64,000 nt of DNA from Acidimicrobiia bacterium (GTDB lineage Bacteria > Actinomycetota > Acidimicrobiia > Acidimicrobiales > VFJN01), in NCBI GenBank assembly GCA_047459075.1, contig VSCH01000013.1, positions 3,874 to 67,873 of the forward strand, read 5' to 3'. Of this stretch, positions 30,521 through 37,317 are shown in pieces. The translations under genes were made by a program, and so were the position numbers. The notes beneath the pieces were generated by a model. That model was given only the letters and a program-made list of their open reading frames with translations. It was not told the origin of the DNA and searched no databases. Within the stretch, counting starts at the first letter, position 1. The number at the start of each line of letters is the position of its first letter.

Positions 30521-31528
30521 TCAGGGGGCGGTGCCGCCGGCCGTCGTGCCCGTCCCGGGCGCGCCCGCCGGGCCGCTCATGGGCGTCACCGGCTCGACCT
30601 CGGTGGTCGTGGTGGTCGACGTGGGGGGCGTGGTGGTGGGCGGCGGCTCGGTGGTGGGGGTGGTGGTCGGCGTCGGGGCCTCGGTCGTGGCCGTCGGCGC
30701 GGGCTCGCCCGCGTCGGGCACGGTGGTCGTGGGCGTCCCGGCCGTGCCGGCGTCGGTCCCGGTGGTCGTCGTGGTGGTCGTCGCCGGGGCGGCCTCGCAC
30801 GGCGCCGCGGTCGGGCCGGTCGCGGGGTCGCAGGCCGTCGTCGTCGGGGTGCCGGCCGGCGTGCCCGACCGGGCCTCGGCCCCGGCGGTCGTCGTCGTCC
30901 GGCGGGCCGTCCGGTCGACGGTGGTCGTCGTGGGCTCGTCGGTGCGGATCTCCTCGATGGCGGGCACGACGACCTTGGCGACGATGCCGGTGGTGGCGGC
31001 CGCGGCGGCGACGCCCAGCCCGACGGCGGTGGCGGCCGCGGCCGCCTTGACCGCGAGGACCCGGCCCAGGGTCCGGGCGGCCGGGTGCGACGACGCCGCC
31101 AGTCGGGCGACGGCGCGCTCCGCGGCGGTGCGGGGGCGGAGGTGGCGGGGGCCGCGGTCCCGCAGGTCGACGACGTCCGCCACGGTGGTCGCCGCCGGGT
31201 CGGCGCCCGGCTCGGTGGCGGTGCGGGCCGGGGGCAGCGGGTCGAGGATCGTGGCGTCGGCCGGCTCGACCTCGTGGCCGGCGAGCGCGGTGCGGCGGAC
31301 GACGGACATGGCGCGCACGATCGCCGCCTCGTCGGCCAGCTCGTCGTCGGCCGGCGGCGCCTCGGCGGCGGCGACGAGCAGCGCCAGGTCCGCGGCCCAC
31401 GGCGGGTCGTCGGGGACCGGCTGGTGGCCCGCCAGCACCCGCTCGAGGACCTCCTCGTCCACGCCGTCGCCGTCGGGGACCGGGCCCTCGTCGTGGTCGG
31501 CGACGAGGCCGTCCTCCGGCCCGCTCAC
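30521..31528 (-). CDS. Hypothetical membrane protein with Thr/Pro-rich tail (candidate anti-sigma)
   Basis: GTGA overlap with sigma stop; acidic N-terminus, single hydrophobic helix, PTTT repeats. Confidence 0.65.
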   Translation of the reverse strand: MSGPEDGLVADHDEGPVPDGDGVDEEVLERVLAGHQPVPDDPPWAADLALLVAAAEAPPADDELADEAAIVRAMSVVRRTALAGHEVEPADATILDPLPPARTATEPGADPAATTVADVVDLRDRGPRHLRPRTAAERAVARLAASSHPAARTLGRVLAVKAAAAATAVGLGVAAAAATTGIVAKVVVPAIEEIRTDEPTTTTVDRTARRTTTTAGAEARSGTPAGTPTTTACDPATGPTAAPCEAAPATTTTTTTGTDAGTAGTPTTTVPDAGEPAPTATTEAPTPTTTPTTEPPPTTTPPTSTTTTTEVEPVTPMSGPAGAPGTGTTAGGTAP

Positions 31529-32118
31529 TCGGCCACCACCTCCGCCTCCGCGCTCCGCCGGGCGGCCAGGCGGCGCAGCGCCCGGTGGCACAGCACGCGC
31601 ACGTTGCCCGGGGTACGGCCCATGATGCGGGCCACCTCGGCCACGTCGAAGCCGCCGAGGACCCGCAGCAGGACGGCCTCGGCCTGGTCGGGCGGGAGCT
31701 CGCGCACCACCGCCTCGATCGCCTGCTGCGCCCCGACCCGCTCGACGACCAGCCACGCCGGGTCGCCGCCCAGGCCGCGCTCGACGGGGTGGTCGAGCCG
31801 CTCGTCGGGCACGGGGTCGGTGCGGCGGCGCTGCTGCCGGCGGCGGTGCTCGACGACCCGGTGCCGGGCGATGGTGAAGATCCAGCTGCGGAACCCGCCC
31901 TCGTCGCCCTGGAACCGGCCGAGGCCCCGGGCGACCGCCAGCCAGACGTCGGCGGCCAGGTCGTCCGCCATGTCGGGCTCCTGGGCCCGGAGGTAGCGGA
32001 GGATCCGGGGCTGGTAGGCCCGGTAGATCTGCGTGAGCGCGCCGTGCTCGCCCTGGCGGGCCAGGGCGAGCAGCGAGGTGAAACCGAGGTCGCGGGCTCC
32101 GTTCGTGGGGCGGCACAT
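31525..32118 (-). CDS. ECF RNA polymerase sigma factor
   Basis: DLAADVW, FRSWIFTIARHR (region 2), LPPDQAEAVLLR...EVARIMG...VRV..HRALRRL (region 4); start uncertain. Confidence 0.9.
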   Translation of the reverse strand: MCRPTNGARDLGFTSLLALARQGEHGALTQIYRAYQPRILRYLRAQEPDMADDLAADVWLAVARGLGRFQGDEGGFRSWIFTIARHRVVEHRRRQQRRRTDPVPDERLDHPVERGLGGDPAWLVVERVGAQQAIEAVVRELPPDQAEAVLLRVLGGFDVAEVARIMGRTPGNVRVLCHRALRRLAARRSAEAEVVAE

Positions 32119-32248
32119 TAGCCAGCGCGCCGACCGCGACCAGGGCGCGCCGCCGAGGGTGGCCAAGGCCACTCGCACCGTGGTGGTCCCCCACCGGCCC
32201 CCGGGGGGCTAGCCTGAGCCCCCACCGTCGGCGCCGAGGAGGAGCCCG

Positions 32249-32959
32249 ATGTCCGCCCTGCCCGTCGACCACCGACCCGTCGCCACGCTCGACGACGTCG
32301 CCCGCGGCGAGTTCCTCACCCGCGTCTACCAGCACCTGCTGGTGGCGGTCGGCGCCTTCGTGGCCTTCGAGGCGCTGCTCATCAACCTCGGCCTCGCCGA
32401 GGCGCTGTGGGACCTCATCGCCGGCAACGGCGCCGCCTGGCTGCTCGTCCTCGGCGGGTTCATGGTCGTCAACTGGCTGGCCACGACCGCGGCCCACGAC
32501 GTGCTGCAGCCGTCGCGCCAGTACGCGGGCCTCTTCGGGCTGGCGGCGGCCGAGGCGGTCATCTTCGCCCCCTTCCTCCACTACTTCTTCGAGGTGCGGG
32601 AGGACGGCACCTCCAGCGTCGTGGCCGCCGCGATCATCACGGCCATCGGCTTCGCCGGCCTGACCGCCGTCGCCCTCGTGACCCGGCGCGACCTGTCGTT
32701 CCTCCGGCCGATCCTGCTGTGGGCGGCCGTCTCGGCGCTGGTGCTCATCGTGGCCGCCGTGCTGTTCGGGCTCGACCTCGGGATCTGGTTCTCCGTGGGG
32801 ATGATCGCCCTGGCCGGCGGGTCGATCCTGTACGAGACGCAGACCATCCTGCGGCGCTACCCGGCGGCGGCGTACGTCGGCGCGGCGGTGCAGCTGTTCG
32901 CCTCCGTGATGCTGCTGTTCTGGTACGTGCTGCGCCTGGTCGGCCAGCTGCGCGACTGA
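32249..32959 (+). CDS. Bax inhibitor-1/YccA family membrane protein
   Basis: FLTRVYQHL, T..DLSFL, ILYETQ.I, 7 TM; GAGGAGG RBS. Confidence 0.85.
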   Translation: MSALPVDHRPVATLDDVARGEFLTRVYQHLLVAVGAFVAFEALLINLGLAEALWDLIAGNGAAWLLVLGGFMVVNWLATTAAHDVLQPSRQYAGLFGLAAAEAVIFAPFLHYFFEVREDGTSSVVAAAIITAIGFAGLTAVALVTRRDLSFLRPILLWAAVSALVLIVAAVLFGLDLGIWFSVGMIALAGGSILYETQTILRRYPAAAYVGAAVQLFASVMLLFWYVLRLVGQLRD

Positions 32960-32975: not shown

Positions 32976-33674
32976 TCAGCCCTCGTCCCCGACCAGCGGC
33001 GCGCCGTCGACCCGGTCGACCGTCGCCCAGTCGCGCACCGGCGCTCGGCGGAGGCGGCGGGGCTGGCGGACGGGGTGGCCGAGCGCGACGACCGCGGCCA
33101 GCGCCAGCTCGTCGGGCGCGCCGAGCAGGGCCTTGACCTCGGGCTCGCGCCGGATCGGCATGGTGGTCACCACGCCGCCCAGGCCCTCGGCCCGCGCCGC
33201 CAGCAGGATGCTCCAGACGAACGGGTAGACCGAGGCGCCGCCGGCGAGCGTGTAGCGATCGAGGTCCCGGTCGACGGCCGCCAGGGCGCCCAGGTCGACG
33301 AACACCGCCAGCAGGGCGGGCACCTCGTCGAGGTGCTCGGCGAACCCGCCACCGGAGGCCGCGGCCTGCTCGGCGAACCGGGGGGCCTCGGCGACGGCCC
33401 GGGCCTCGGCGTCCCGGTCGTTGAGCGGGCCCCACGGCGTGAGCCCGGCCGCGCCCATGGCCAGGTACTCGTACCAGCCGTCCAGGTAGAGGTCGCGCAG
33501 CCGGCGGCGGGTCCCGGGGTCGCGCACCACGACGACCCGCCAGCCCTGGCGGTTGCCGCCGCTGGGGGCGAACCGGGCGGTGTCGAGGATGCGGACCAGG
33601 GTCCGGTCGTCCACCGGCTCGTCGGTGAAGGCGCGCACGGCCCCGGTCGTCCGGAGGGTGTCGATCAGGTCCAT
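32976..33674 (-). CDS. Nitroreductase family protein
   Basis: T..AVRAF.DEPV, ARFAPSGGNRQGW, LLAARAEGLG. Confidence 0.9.
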   Translation of the reverse strand: MDLIDTLRTTGAVRAFTDEPVDDRTLVRILDTARFAPSGGNRQGWRVVVVRDPGTRRRLRDLYLDGWYEYLAMGAAGLTPWGPLNDRDAEARAVAEAPRFAEQAAASGGGFAEHLDEVPALLAVFVDLGALAAVDRDLDRYTLAGGASVYPFVWSILLAARAEGLGGVVTTMPIRREPEVKALLGAPDELALAAVVALGHPVRQPRRLRRAPVRDWATVDRVDGAPLVGDEG

Positions 33675-33791
33675 CGCCGCGGCACGCTAGGCGCGCCCGG
33701 GCGGCGTCGGGGGCGTGCGGCGAATTGCGGTGCGGTGCCGGGGTGGGCGTTGGTAGGTTGCGACCTACCAGAGAAGGGAGGTGGTCCAGAC

Positions 33792-33836
33792 ATGAGTGAC
33801 GGAAGTCAGGGGACCCTGGAGGTGGCTGGCCGCTGA
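33792..33836 (+). CDS. Putative 14-aa peptide MSDGSQGTLEVAGR
   Basis: AAGGGAGG SD at 33774-33781, 10 nt upstream of ATG. Confidence 0.4.
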   Translation: MSDGSQGTLEVAGR

Positions 33837-33948
33837 GCGGTTGGTCGGACCCCTTGGTGGAATCCAACCAGACCACCCCCTGAACGGTTGCCGGGAGCTC
33901 GTCCCACCCGGCGCGACGACCGAGCAGGGCCTGTCCGACGAGATCGGG

Positions 33949-33975
33949 GAGGGAGGCCTTCGGGCCTCCCTCTTC
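33949..33975 (+). terminator. Intrinsic terminator-like hairpin with cUUCGg tetraloop
   Basis: GAGGGAGGCC-TTCG-GGCCTCCCTC followed by TT. Confidence 0.8.
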
Positions 33976-34022: not shown

Positions 34023-34877
34023 ATGAGGCTGGCCAACCACGCAGGCCGCGCCGTCCTCGTCACCGGCGACGACCGCGCCGTCGACGTCGCCGAGGCGTCC
34101 GGCGGGCGCTTCGGGCCCGACCCGGCGGCCCTCTACGACGACTGGGACGCGTTCCGCGCCTGGGCGGCCGAGGCCCCGCTCGACCGTGCCCCGGCGCACC
34201 CGATCGACGAGGCCGCGCTCGGCCCGCCGTCGCCCCGGCCCCGCCAGGTGTTCGGCATCGGGCTCAACTACCGGGCCCACGCCGCCGAGACGGGCCAGGA
34301 GGTCCCCCGGATCCCGGCGACGTTCACCAAGTTCCCGAGCTGCCTCACCGGCCCGTACGCCACCGTCGAGCTGCCGAGCGGCCACGTCGACTGGGAGGTC
34401 GAGCTCGTGGTCGTCGTCGGCCGCCGGGCCCACCGGGTGCACGAGGGCGACGCCTGGGCGCACGTGGCCGGGCTCACCGTCGGCCAGGACCTGTCGGAGC
34501 GGGTCGTCCAGCGGGCCGCCGGCGGGCAGTTCTGCCTGGGCAAGTCGTACCCGGGCTTCGGCCCGACCGGCCCGTGGCTCGTCACCCCCGACGAGCTGGA
34601 CGATCCCGACGACCTCCACCTGCGGTGCAGCATCGACGGCGAGGTCGTCCAGGACGCCCGCACCAGCGACATGATCGTGCCGGTGCCCGGCCTGGTGCGG
34701 GTGCTGTCGGAGCACGTGACGCTGCTGCCCGGCGACGTCGTCTTCACCGGCACGCCCGCCGGCGTCGGCGTCGCCCGCGACCCCCGGCGCTACCTGGCAC
34801 CGGGCCAGGTCGTCGAGAGCACGATCGAGGGCATCGGCACCATGCGCACCCGCCTCGCGGCCCGGTCCGAGGGGTGA
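34023..34877 (+). CDS. Fumarylacetoacetate hydrolase family protein
   Basis: IGLNY..HA.E, FTK, DWEVEL, GQDLSER, GKS...FGP.GPW, GDVVFTGTPAGVG. Confidence 0.93.
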   Translation: MRLANHAGRAVLVTGDDRAVDVAEASGGRFGPDPAALYDDWDAFRAWAAEAPLDRAPAHPIDEAALGPPSPRPRQVFGIGLNYRAHAAETGQEVPRIPATFTKFPSCLTGPYATVELPSGHVDWEVELVVVVGRRAHRVHEGDAWAHVAGLTVGQDLSERVVQRAAGGQFCLGKSYPGFGPTGPWLVTPDELDDPDDLHLRCSIDGEVVQDARTSDMIVPVPGLVRVLSEHVTLLPGDVVFTGTPAGVGVARDPRRYLAPGQVVESTIEGIGTMRTRLAARSEG

Positions 34878-34887
34878 GGCCGGCGGG

Positions 34888-36075
34888 TCAGCGCTCGAAC
34901 TCGAACTCGACGTGGGCCGAGCGCAGCCCGTAGACGAACGCGTTCGGCATCTCGACGACCTCGGTGCCCGGGACCAGCCGCATCGAGCGCACCCGCCGCA
35001 CCAGCTCGGTGAAGAACAGCCGGATCTCCTGGCGGGCCAGCGCCGCCCCCAGGCAGAAGTGGGTGCCGAACCCGAAGGCGATGTGGTTGTTCGGCTGCCG
35101 GGTGACGTCGAAGCGCTCCGGGTCCTCGAAGTGGGCCGGGTCGCGGTTGGCCGAGCTGTACATCAGCACGAGCTGCTGGCCGGCCTCGATCGGCTGGCCG
35201 CCGACCTCGGTGTCCTCCGTCGCCACCCGGCACATGTTGTGGATCGGCGTGACCCAGCGGATGAACTCCTCGGTCGCGACCCCCATGTCGGCGCCCTGCT
35301 TGAGCAGGGCCCACTGGTCGGGGTGGTCGATGAGGGCGAGGATCGTGCGGGCGATGACCGTCCGGGTGGTCTCGGCGCCGCCGTCGAGCAGGAGCAGGCA
35401 GTCGGAGATGACGGCGTCGACCGACAGGGGCTCGCCGTCGATGCTGGCCCGCGTCCAGACCGTCATGATGTCGTCGGCCGGGCAGCGCCGCTTCTCCTCG
35501 TAGAGCTCCTGGGCCGCGGCGGCGAACTCCATCGCCGCCGCCACGCCGTCCTCGTTGATGTAGCGGGGACCGCCGCCCAGGGCGATGGTGCGCTCCGACC
35601 AGTCCTTCAGCTCGGGCCAGCGCTCGCGGGGGAAGCCCAGCAGCCAGGCGATCGTCATCGCCGGCAGCGGGGCGGCGAGCTCGCCCACGATCTCCGCCGT
35701 GCCGCCCTTGCGCTCCACGGCGTCGATCAGCTCCCGCACCGTCCGGCGCACGTGGTCCTCGCGGGCGGCGACGGCCCGGGGCGTGAACCGCCGCGACACG
35801 AGGCCCCGCCGGCGGTTGTGGAGCGGGTCGTCGAGGCCGATGATCGAGGGGTCGGCGGGGATGTTGGGCCGGTAGCCGCCCTTCTTCGTGTCCGAGTTGA
35901 TGAAGACGTCCTTGCGCCGCTCGACGTCGACGACGTCGTCGTAGCGCGAGACGCCCCACAGCTCGTTGGTGGCGTCCCAGTAGACCGGGGCGTTCTCCCG
36001 CATCCACGCGTACGTGGGGTACGGGTCGCCGACGTAGAAGTCGCCGTCCAGCAGGTCGATCTCGCGCGTCTGCAT
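34888..36075 (-). CDS. Cytochrome P450, CYP142-like
   Basis: WMRENAPV, LLLDGGAETTR I-helix, EFIRW, HIAFGFGTHFCLG heme motif. Confidence 0.92.
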   Translation of the reverse strand: MQTREIDLLDGDFYVGDPYPTYAWMRENAPVYWDATNELWGVSRYDDVVDVERRKDVFINSDTKKGGYRPNIPADPSIIGLDDPLHNRRRGLVSRRFTPRAVAAREDHVRRTVRELIDAVERKGGTAEIVGELAAPLPAMTIAWLLGFPRERWPELKDWSERTIALGGGPRYINEDGVAAAMEFAAAAQELYEEKRRCPADDIMTVWTRASIDGEPLSVDAVISDCLLLLDGGAETTRTVIARTILALIDHPDQWALLKQGADMGVATEEFIRWVTPIHNMCRVATEDTEVGGQPIEAGQQLVLMYSSANRDPAHFEDPERFDVTRQPNNHIAFGFGTHFCLGAALARQEIRLFFTELVRRVRSMRLVPGTEVVEMPNAFVYGLRSAHVEFEFER

Positions 36076-36109
36076 GGCCCCCCTCGTGCAGCGTCCGTGC
36101 CCCGCAGGT

Positions 36110-36124
36110 TAGAACAGGGTTCTC
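36110..36124. promoter_or_regulatory. KstR-like inverted repeat (3-nt spacer)
   Basis: TAGAAC-AGG-GTTCTC between divergent P450 and kinase genes. Confidence 0.45.
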
Positions 36125-36192
36125 GCGAGCGAGCGCGGGCGCGGCCGGCGTGGGTGGCGGGCCGCGGGGACCCCGGTCGAGGAGGGGAGACC

Positions 36193-37317
36193 ATGAGCGA
36201 CACGACGGTGCCGGCGACGGCCGGCGGGCCTCGGGGCGCCGGCCGCCCCGACCCCGAGGTCGTCGACGACCCGGCGCAGCTCACGCCGGCGTGGTTCGCG
36301 GCCGCGCTGGCCGGCGAGCCCGACCCGCCCGACGTCGTGGGCGCCACCACCGAGCCGGTCGGGACCGGCCAGATGGCCTCGACGGTGCGGGCCCGCCTCG
36401 CCCTGGCCGGCGGCGGCGAGCGGACGGTCGTCGTCAAGTTCGCCCGGCCGGGCGTCGACTCGCCCATGGCCGCCATGGCCTACGCCAAGGAGGTCGCCTT
36501 CTACCGCGAGCTCGCCGACCGGGTCGCGGCCCGGGTCCCCCGCTGCGCCTACGCGGCCGTCGAGGACGGCGCCCCCCGGTTCACGCTGGTGCTCGAGGAC
36601 ATGGCGGACGCCCGGCCCGGCGACCAGCTCGCCGGCTGCACCGCCGACCAGGCGGCCGACGCCCTCGTCAACCTGGCCGGGCTCCACGCGCCGACCTGGT
36701 GCGACGCCGAGCTCGCGACCCGGCCGTGGCTGCGCTCCGACCCGGCGGTCACCGCCGAGGTCATGGGGTCGGTCATCGGTGTCGCCGCCGACCAGTTCGC
36801 CGAGCGGTTCGCCGACGAGCTCGAGCCGCTCGAGGCCGACCTGCTCGCCGCCTGCCGCGAGCTGCTGGCCCGGTGGATGCTCGACACCGGCGACGTCGTC
36901 GCCGTCCTCCACGGCGACTACCGGCTGGACAACCTGCTGTTCCCGGCCGACGGCGGCCCCGGGGTGGCCGCGGTCGACTGGCAGACCGCCTCGATGGGGC
37001 CCCCGGGCCGCGACCTCGCCTTCTTCCTCGCCACCTGCCTGGAGGTCGAGGACCGCCGCCGGCACGAGGACGACCTCGTGGCCGCCTACCACGGGGCGCT
37101 CGTCGCCCAGGGCGTCGACGGCTACGACCTCGACGCCTGCCGGGAGGACTACCGGCTCGGGCTGCTGCACGCGCCGCTCATCGTGCTGCTGGGCCGGCTG
37201 ACCGCCGGGGTGACCGAGCGGGGCGACGCGATGTTCCGGGCCATGTGGCGCCGCAGCGCCGCCGCCATCGACGACCTGGGCGCGCTGGAGGCCGTCCGCC
37301 GCCGGCTCGACGGCTGA
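36193..37317 (+). CDS. Aminoglycoside phosphotransferase/EcKinase-like protein
   Basis: GTGQMA, VVKF, EV.FY, LVLED, HGDYRLDNLLF, VDWQ. Confidence 0.88.
   Translation: MSDTTVPATAGGPRGAGRPDPEVVDDPAQLTPAWFAAALAGEPDPPDVVGATTEPVGTGQMASTVRARLALAGGGERTVVVKFARPGVDSPMAAMAYAKEVAFYRELADRVAARVPRCAYAAVEDGAPRFTLVLEDMADARPGDQLAGCTADQAADALVNLAGLHAPTWCDAELATRPWLRSDPAVTAEVMGSVIGVAADQFAERFADELEPLEADLLAACRELLARWMLDTGDVVAVLHGDYRLDNLLFPADGGPGVAAVDWQTASMGPPGRDLAFFLATCLEVEDRRRHEDDLVAAYHGALVAQGVDGYDLDACREDYRLGLLHAPLIVLLGRLTAGVTERGDAMFRAMWRRSAAAIDDLGALEAVRRRLDG

Follow-up and report, generated by a model that had tools for sequence, protein, structure and literature searches.

What is the compositionally distinct segment that separates two divergent genes in a contig of an Acidimicrobiia bacterium (GenBank assembly GCA_047459075.1, contig VSCH01000013.1), and what might it do? 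In the stretch of 64,000 nucleotides (nt) that was analysed, hereafter the window, a nitroreductase gene (32976-33674, minus strand) and a gene encoding an FAA-hydrolase (FAH; 34023-34877, plus strand) leave a gap of 348 nt. This gap was found to contain a small-RNA unit of about 210 nt (33754-33975, plus strand) that brings its own -10 box, an exceptionally long Shine-Dalgarno (SD) sequence, an open reading frame (ORF) of 14 codons and a hairpin terminator. At 67.5%, the GC content of 33767-33975 falls below that of the two flanking genes (77.5% and 76.1%) and of the window as a whole (76.4%). A first-pass annotation, made by inspection of the DNA, had pointed out both the siting of the segment between the two divergent genes and its distinct composition; gene coordinates and GC values bear this out, and the sequence features that it listed are all present in their places. 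As judged from sequence, the unit is a divergent homologue of Ms_IGR-5 (Rfam RF02471), a member of that family by descent and not by the operational score of Rfam.

Assignment to the Ms_IGR-5 family

Ms_IGR-5 is a small RNA (sRNA) of Actinobacteria, IGR-5 of Mycobacterium smegmatis being the RNA designated ncMSMEG15794c. Searches with the Rfam models at their gathering thresholds gave zero matches in the window. Below that threshold, which for RF02471 is curated at 45 bits, the RF02471 model aligned over its entire length (model positions 1-184 of 184) to 33767-33935 with 28.9 bits and E = 7.8e-5 (501 nt scanned), and a genome-wide model search identified a single RF02471-type locus in the window's own genome (E = 1.3e-4). 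The alignment was full-length and collinear, and a chain of intermediates that score above the cut-off connects the window copy to the family. The unit also has the sequence characteristics of a stand-alone intergenic sRNA gene, in that the -10 box and the terminator are kept and the neighbours vary. When 20 loci found with the same motifs as the window copy were scanned with RF02471, eight scored above the cut-off (47.7-175.8 bits), three scored 32.7-38.7 bits and nine gave nothing at E <= 0.001. The loci above the cut-off comprised actinomycete copies from Mycobacterium (175.8 bits), Nocardioides (112.7), Micromonospora (98.5), Streptomyces (93.3) and Kineococcus (85), together with copies from Blastocatellia (49.6), Acidimicrobiales (48.8) and an Acidobacteria metagenome-assembled genome (MAG; 47.7). 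The five actinomycete copies and the Acidimicrobiales copy have the same sequence blocks throughout. The blocks common to the window copy and Ms_IGR-5 occur in the same order: the long SD followed by GGUCC, then GGAC, GAGGUGGCUG, GAAUCC, CAGnCACC and the GUCC loop.

Matches to other Rfam families at E <= 10 numbered 11; they scored 8-22 bits, covered short pieces and lay far under the respective gathering scores. The models for signal recognition particle (SRP) RNA, tmRNA, 6C, Ms1, T-box, raiA and ribosomal protein leaders gave no match at gathering score, which agrees with the failure of the first-pass annotation to recognise SRP, tmRNA, 6C or Ms1 RNA by eye. As that annotation had itself stipulated, a match to a family already described removes the novelty of the element.

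Conservation and distribution

A DNA search of 40 relatives and the window's own genome returned full-length matches with 78-95% identity in 21 of the 24 genomes of the same genus, the three genomes without a match being 67-81% complete, so the homologues by which the first-pass annotation proposed to check the element do exist. Of 16 other families in the order, 9 gave a match to the 5' core. In an alignment of 30 copies, the flanks beyond the -10 box and the hairpin could not be aligned between most genomes, and the unit itself was kept.

A motif scan using one genome per species yielded at least 120 loci. The matches listed included Mycobacterium, Streptomyces, Micromonospora, Nocardioides, Pseudonocardia, Geodermatophilus, Acidimicrobiia and Solirubrobacteraceae, and in addition Terriglobia, Blastocatellia, Bryobacterales, a Leptospira isolate, a Syntrophobacter MAG and an Eisenbacteria MAG. 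A match from Anaerolineaceae (L061) was set aside because it looks like chance, with none of the other features. In a sample of the phylum, the Rfam model matched 44 of 151 genomes at E <= 0.001, 19 of them above the cut-off, and R1, a 72-position model of the 5' domain built in this analysis, matched 75 of 151, nearly always in single copy; these tallies include unpublished genomes, all of which match (4 for Rfam, 6 for R1), and become 40/147 and 69/145 without them. R1 also matched 14 of 101 genomes in a sample of Acidobacteriota (10 at E < 1e-5; 3 of 101 with the Rfam model) and 12 of 101 in a sample of Spirochaetota, 11 of these at E < 1e-7, with 10 of those 11 genomes being 3.9-4.7 Mb in size. 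Copies outside Actinomycetota have -35 boxes of the TTGACA type and U-tailed terminators. The range of the Ms_IGR-5 family takes in Actinomycetota, Acidobacteriota and Leptospira-like spirochaetes at the least. Genomes G024 (C35:182460-182704 and C36:32207-32448) and G065 (C17 and C126) each have two complete copies, nearly all other genomes having one.

Promoter, Shine-Dalgarno sequence and terminator

The -10 box noted in the first-pass annotation, TAGGTT at 33754-33759, is confirmed in position: 25 of 30 relatives have a TANNNT box at this point of the alignment, and the extended form TTGnTAnnnT is kept across the genus (both read from the 30-copy alignment). Together with the preceding TGg it forms a predicted extended -10 promoter at 33751-33759 (plus strand). 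The palindrome GGTAGGT..ACCTACC, in which the box had been placed, is broken already in the closest relative (L008) and is not kept in the 30-copy alignment. The base 10 nt before GGAGG is A in 132 of 147 copies and is the likely transcription start; in the window this is A33767 (plus strand), which is also the first base of the Rfam match.

The SD sequence AAGGGAGG, followed by ATG at 33792 and the ORF MSDGSQGTLEVAGR, is as strong as had been described. Its core lies within the segment AGAAGGGAGGU (33772-33782, plus strand; GGAGG at 33777-81), 5-15 nt from the predicted transcription start, and the covariation-supported fold described below leaves this segment as an unpaired bulge between helices P1a and P1b, not sequestered as had been proposed. 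Reading upstream from GGAGG, each of the first three bases is a purine in all 147 copies; G takes the fourth position in 144 copies, and a purine the fifth in 136. Such A/G-only variation fits A-U or G.U pairing with the U's of the 16S rRNA 3' tail. The actinobacterial tail, which we assume to end in ..CCUCCUUUCU-3', matches the SD run, and the complementarity would then end at the last base of the tail, exactly where P1a begins.

The terminator hairpin (33946-33975, plus strand) has a stem of 13 bp, a UUCG loop and no U-tract. It corresponds to the cUUCGg hairpin with which the first-pass annotation had closed the unit, and 8 of its 12 counted pairs are changed on both sides among the relatives. 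A simple consensus scan reported no promoter and no terminator here, the promoter being of the extended -10 type and the terminator lacking a U-tract.

Conserved frame and stop of the mini-ORF

The mini-ORF occupies 33792-33836 on the plus strand (14 codons, MSDGSQGTLEVAGR, plus TGA at 33834-36). It is open in 30 of 30 order-level copies, with 12-15 codons, an ending of ..EV[AI]xR and TGA, TAA or TAG as stop. The search pattern behind a wider sample of 146 distinct copies holds both GGAGGUGG blocks constant and leaves start, stop and helix partners free. In this sample a canonical start (ATG, GTG or TTG) stands in frame 4-16 nt past GGAGG in 132 copies, compared with 32 and 1 in the other two frames. 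A stop lies exactly five codons past GAG in 144 copies (TAG 105, TGA 24, TAA 16), and a stop within six codons was found in the other frames in 3 and 8 copies. ORF length differs by clade: 85 copies have 12 codons and 40 have 14, and forms with 17-21 codons occur mainly outside Actinomycetota.

The encoded residues follow the RNA. Codons 5-7 vary as R/W/G, T and R/C/L/S according to the bases that helix P1 needs; codons 11-12 and the last two codons vary with the strands that pair with them, giving changes of the V/A/G/E type; and E-V-A is encoded by bases that vary at no codon position and belong to a helix strand. Frame and stop of the mini-ORF are thus kept while its residues track RNA helices, and the peptide looks like a passenger. 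Just past the start codon, a GGUAG/AUAG motif that gives an out-of-frame UAG recurs across phyla; in this apical region of P1 the window reads GGAAGU (33800-33806) and relatives read GGUAGA, GGUAGU or AUAG.

Covariation-supported fold

The fold was derived with RNAalifold on 29 copies, inspection and pair counting (alignment A1). Folding of the single sequence was not better than chance (plus strand z = -1.78, with 7 of 200 shuffles equal), and the minus strand folded about as well; the evidence for structure consequently comes from covariation and not from folding energy. In alignment A1, 95.6% of cells pair, compared with 88.9% after shuffling and 34-53% with slid partners, and 25 pairs are changed on both sides, compared with 12.4 after shuffling, a number that none of 500 shuffles reached. 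Covariation among relatives, which the first-pass annotation had named as a check, is therefore present.

All helices lie on the plus strand. In P1a, CCAG (33768-33771) pairs with CUGG (33816-33819); more than 12 pair types occur over 147 copies, and among 60 diverse copies three of the pairs show 28, 22 and 14 double changes. P1b, formed by GGUCC (33783-33787) and GGACC (33811-33815), carries the start codon in the top of its hairpin and pairs in 100% of cells in A1 and 92% in the 60 diverse copies, with little covariation because the strands are nearly invariant. The long-range helix joins GGUGGCUGG (33821-33829; codons E-V-A-G) to CCAG-A-CCACC (33868-33877, A33872 bulged) and pairs in 97.7% of cells in A1. 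Its compensatory variants include UGUC/GACA, UGCC/GGCA, UGCU/AGCA and UGCG/CGCA, and further CCGAG/CUCGG, CCGGG/CCCGG, GAUUGG/CCAAUC and UGAG/CUCA. In the 82 of 147 copies in which the partner could be placed without using the bases under test, the ninth pair of this helix is complementary in 74 (shuffled mean 36, maximum 51). P2 (33830-33840) is the hairpin CCGC-UGA-GCGG with the stop codon in its loop; it pairs in 93.1% of cells in A1 and shows weak covariation.

A further helix is P3, in which GUCGGA (33844-33849) pairs with UCCGAC (33934-33939), with changes from UA to CG in 4 and from CG to UA in 5 of the 29 sequences. P3 crosses the long-range helix, with which it would form a pseudoknot or an alternative. 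The junction motif GAAUCC (33860-33865) stands just 5' of the long-range 3' strand and precedes this partner strand in most copies across phyla. In P5 (33878-33929), a hairpin with the invariant loop GUCCC (33901-05), 11 of 14 pairs are changed on both sides. Past the long-range strand, 131 of 147 copies have GUCC, compared with 58-105 for control 4-mers of the same composition, and in 98 of those 131 it falls in the apical loop of the local fold. The GUCC loop and the GGAC of the ORF are both nearly invariant within clades. In Leptospira-like copies the ORF-side strand is GACC and the loop is GGUC, a variant suggesting that the loop may take the place of the P1b 5' strand, so that the GUCC loop would pair with the ORF GGAC. 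Homology, the conserved frame and stop, and the covarying helices are the parts of this description that comparison of the copies demonstrates.

The stems that the first-pass annotation had proposed fared less well. TCAGGGG/CCCCTGA pairs in 43.9% of cells and CTCGTC/GACGAG in 74.0%, against 74.7% after shuffling; GGTTGG/CCAACC is weak, with 76.7% of cells paired and one pair broken in 20 of 29 sequences. A second SD-like block, GGAGGTGG, is present at 33818-25 as had been noted, but it is one strand of the covarying long-range helix. The suggested switch, in which the SD region would be captured by the GACCACC strand, is likewise not borne out, because that strand covaries with the second GGAGGTGG block and not with the SD. 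In this organism the pairing of SD and GACCACC has 7 bp and -13.2 kcal/mol, compared with -13.9 kcal/mol for the rival long-range helix, and its sixth pair holds in 9 of 29 relatives and is broken in 20. A pairing of 5 bp between CCACC and the SD-proximal block is always available since both GGUGG blocks are identical. The SD:GACCACC alternative may accordingly be a local feature and not one of the family.

Proposed working of the RNA

On balance we lean towards a reading in which this stand-alone copy of Ms_IGR-5, about 210 nt long, has the ribosome as its working partner, and in which translation, not the peptide, toggles or resets the 3' domain. The transcript would run from the extended -10 promoter, with its start near A33767, to the hairpin terminator at 33946-33975. 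Its 5' end would present the unpaired SD bulge, matching the whole 16S 3' tail, between two short helices, with the start codon 10 nt past the SD in the top of a hairpin. The second half of the ORF consists of helix strands (GGACC, CUGG and GGUGGCUGG), and the stop lies in the loop of the next hairpin, so a ribosome reading the ORF must unzip the fold. GGACC would pair with the bases directly past the SD, CUGG with the 5' end of the RNA, and GGUGGCUGG with CCAG-A-CCACC 40 nt downstream, knotted with the second long-range helix. A 30S subunit accommodating the start region would have to open P1, and an elongating ribosome would have to open the long-range helix and P2 before reaching the stop. 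Conversely, the folded RNA would hinder the ribosome, making folding and translation mutually exclusive. The selected act would then be ribosome binding and transit, by which the 3' domain is toggled or reset. Binding of 30S near the 5' end would probably also stabilise the RNA, as STAB-SD does against RNase J1, and the folded 3' domain could pair with targets, bind a protein or hold a ribosome. The switch and any cellular role are what we infer from the anatomy.

Reports on homologues are compatible with a transcribed and ribosome-associated RNA. RNA-seq validated a homologue in S. lividans, an sRNA transcription unit whose ends were mapped is on record for S. avermitilis, and Ms_IGR-5 was detected in M. 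smegmatis as ncMSMEG15794c. For the Ms_IGR-5 homologues of M. abscessus and M. smegmatis, significant ribosome footprints are reported in a study of M. abscessus. A paper on Ribo-seq of M. tuberculosis leaves sRNAs unmentioned in its main text, and no mechanism or function was found in the searchable literature on Ms_IGR-5, RF02471 or ncMSMEG15794.

Several observations weigh against this proposal. Membership of RF02471 is not reached by score (28.9 versus 45 bits), and no phenotype, target or partner is known for any member of the family. Transcription and translation in this organism are predicted. Contigs from compost metatranscriptomes were not counted as evidence of expression, since transcript ends, strand and level could not be read from them; RNA run X14 contains a 393-nt contig (33532-33924; the element and the 5' end of the upstream gene) with a mean word depth of 831, compared with about 45 for the neighbours, and three other runs were flat. 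The SD complementarity depends on an assumed tail sequence because the genome's own 16S 3' end lies outside the assembly, a search for it giving only two chance matches, with 2 mismatches each. In 13 of the 146 copies the only starts are near-cognate (CTG in 10, plus ATT, ATA and ATC) and one copy has none. The third positions of GAG GUG GCU never vary and are uninformative on coding, and the invariance of the GGAGGUGG blocks is partly built in because the search pattern fixes them. The conserved U-R-R past the helix could be a structural loop instead of a stop codon.

The proposal that translation resets the fold has a more far-reaching relative, drawn by analogy, to which we give little weight: Ms_IGR-5 might serve a housekeeping role by imitating an ideal translation-initiation region and acting as a decoy or sensor of 30S or 70S ribosomes, the counterpart in translation of what 6S RNA and Ms1 are for RNA polymerase. 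The 16S tail would dock on the bulged SD, which ends exactly at P1a; the pseudoknot would hold or gauge ribosomes whenever the capacity for translation shifts; and the RNA would be reset by transit of the mini-ORF.

Alternative explanations

The best-surviving alternative, which we nevertheless regard as unlikely, is a riboregulator that is not translated. Its long SD would merely recruit 30S near the 5' end, blocking decay from 5' to 3' in the manner of STAB-SD or soaking up anti-SD tails, and start and stop would be by-products of loops. The position of the SD, which begins 5 nt from the predicted 5' end, agrees with this, as do the complementarity to the 16S tail kept by A/G-only variation, the full account that RNA helices give of the second half of the ORF, and the placing of the start in a hairpin top and of the stop in a loop. 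What speaks for translation instead is the reading frame: the properly spaced start, found in frame in 132 of 146 copies and in the two alternative frames in 32 and 1; a TAA, TAG or TGA stop in 144 of 146 despite nearby indels; and maintenance of the frame though the length of the ORF shifts between clades (12, 14 or 17-19 codons). The footprints reported for homologues point in the same direction.

If translation is accepted, the peptide itself could be the product, the RNA structure tuning only the synthesis of a tiny functional protein of 12-19 residues that ends in ..T-x-E-V-A-x-x. The conserved frame and stop and the invariant E-V-A would fit, as would N-terminal residues that recur across phyla (N/I-D-S/G, with frequent Cys or Trp) and a serine at position 3 for which actinomycete copies use AGY as well as UCN codons (read from the listed sequences). 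Yet the bases of E-V-A are invariant at all codon positions and make up a helix strand, the residues around them vary freely with helix covariation (R/C/L/S; V/A/G/E/D with R/S/A/T/Q), and at 12 residues the peptide has no recognisable signal or fold. We consider a peptide gene decidedly improbable.

A cis-acting leader or attenuator of the FAH gene, or of another downstream gene, is more doubtful still, and we would assign it only a very small chance. The FAH start lies 48 nt past the terminator hairpin on the same strand, and in four Terriglobia/Bryobacterales loci (L058, L072, L084 and L145) rpmE, encoding the zinc-ribbon form of ribosomal protein L31, lies directly downstream of the element, about 200-260 nt past it, following the U-tailed terminator on the same strand. 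However, FAH is downstream in only 7 of 30 related loci, nitroreductase adjoins the element in 6 of 30 (upstream in 4, downstream in 2), and Pfam scans of 150 flanking frames gave no general neighbour. The rpmE linkage was rejected as a general clue, as none of the 12 other Acidobacteriota and Leptospira-like loci checked has rpmE nearby. Compensatory changes accompany the conservation of the terminator, no antiterminator alternative was found, and homologues are recorded as separate sRNA units; there is no run of regulatory codons, downstream genes differ and the long-range strand does not overlap the terminator, so the attenuator suggested in the first-pass annotation is set aside.

Almost no credence attaches to a type I toxin-like mRNA with a sequestered SD, an idea also raised in the first-pass annotation. 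The strong SD, the structured RNA and the shortness of the ORF would fit such an mRNA. Against it stand the hydrophilic nature of the peptide MSDGSQGTLEVAGR, which has only 14 residues, the vertical conservation of a single-copy element in three phyla, and the SD, which is bulged in the covariation-supported fold; judged from the DNA alone, an antisense promoter or partner is not evident and the opposite strand shows no conserved unit. Of the view of the element as an independent, possibly dual-function sRNA, the core holds, namely a stand-alone unit with conserved promoter box, SD, frame, stop and terminator amid changing neighbours, and the toxin and attenuator variants fall away.

The sRNA gene described here is missed by the Rfam cut-off, as in about half of the phylum's family-carrying genomes (R1 75 of 151 versus 19 above the cut-off). 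The anatomy of the family is informative: an SD that would match the whole 16S tail, a mini-ORF that tracks helices, and a covarying, knotted fold that a ribosome would have to undo. Such an anatomy was not found described in the searchable literature. Should the RNA work through the ribosome, it would be a widespread and testable regulator in mycobacteria and streptomycetes.

Neighbouring genes

As most copies stop at TAG, a role as a sensor of release factor RF1 was considered; it was dropped, release-factor genes not being beside the sRNA-rpmE locus in the four Terriglobia genomes. At two places (G041:C4:472054-472619 and G044:C12:304999-305563) release-factor matches were split into two adjacent pieces, as expected for the programmed frameshift of prfB. 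A divergent gene for a FUR-family regulator adjoins the element in three actinobacterial loci (L046, L089 and L103) and could point to regulation by metal or peroxide in that clade. Downstream of the element in five Micromonosporaceae loci (four Micromonospora, one Actinoplanes) is a gene of the metallo-beta-lactamase fold. In the window, the ORF upstream of the unit (30521-32581, minus strand; 686 residues) had no Pfam match, and an ORF downstream (34912-37317, plus strand; 801 residues) has a phosphotransferase (APH/EcKL) domain confined to its C-terminal half.

Comparison with known systems

By analogy only, the element resembles 6S RNA and Ms1 in being a conserved, single-copy RNA of housekeeping type that looks like the substrate of a core machine, here a translation-initiation region; it has no sequence or structure relation to them (no Rfam match), and the likeness is one of sequence features. 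With rnTrpL/peTrpL of Sinorhizobium, as described, it shares the form of a small RNA with an ORF of about 14 codons and a terminator hairpin at its end. Unlike rnTrpL/peTrpL, the window element lacks regulatory codons, a linked operon and an antiterminator, and its peptide looks like a passenger.

STAB-SD, according to a review, is an SD-like 5' element that binds 30S without a translation start and blocks RNase J1. The window element is like STAB-SD of B. thuringiensis cry3A in having a 5'-proximal SD-like sequence complementary to the 16S 3' end, given the tail sequence assumed above. STAB-SD does not direct initiation, whereas Ms_IGR-5 copies have a start at normal spacing (132 of 146) and a conserved frame.

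Compared with RF02471 itself, the window copy has an ORF of 14 codons in place of 12 and TGA in place of the usual TAG, and it has an additional closing helix, P3, and a separate terminator hairpin. The Rfam consensus structure pairs the SD-adjacent bases otherwise than do the helices that covary here. Like other members of RF02471, the window copy stands alone, between a predicted promoter and a terminator of its own.

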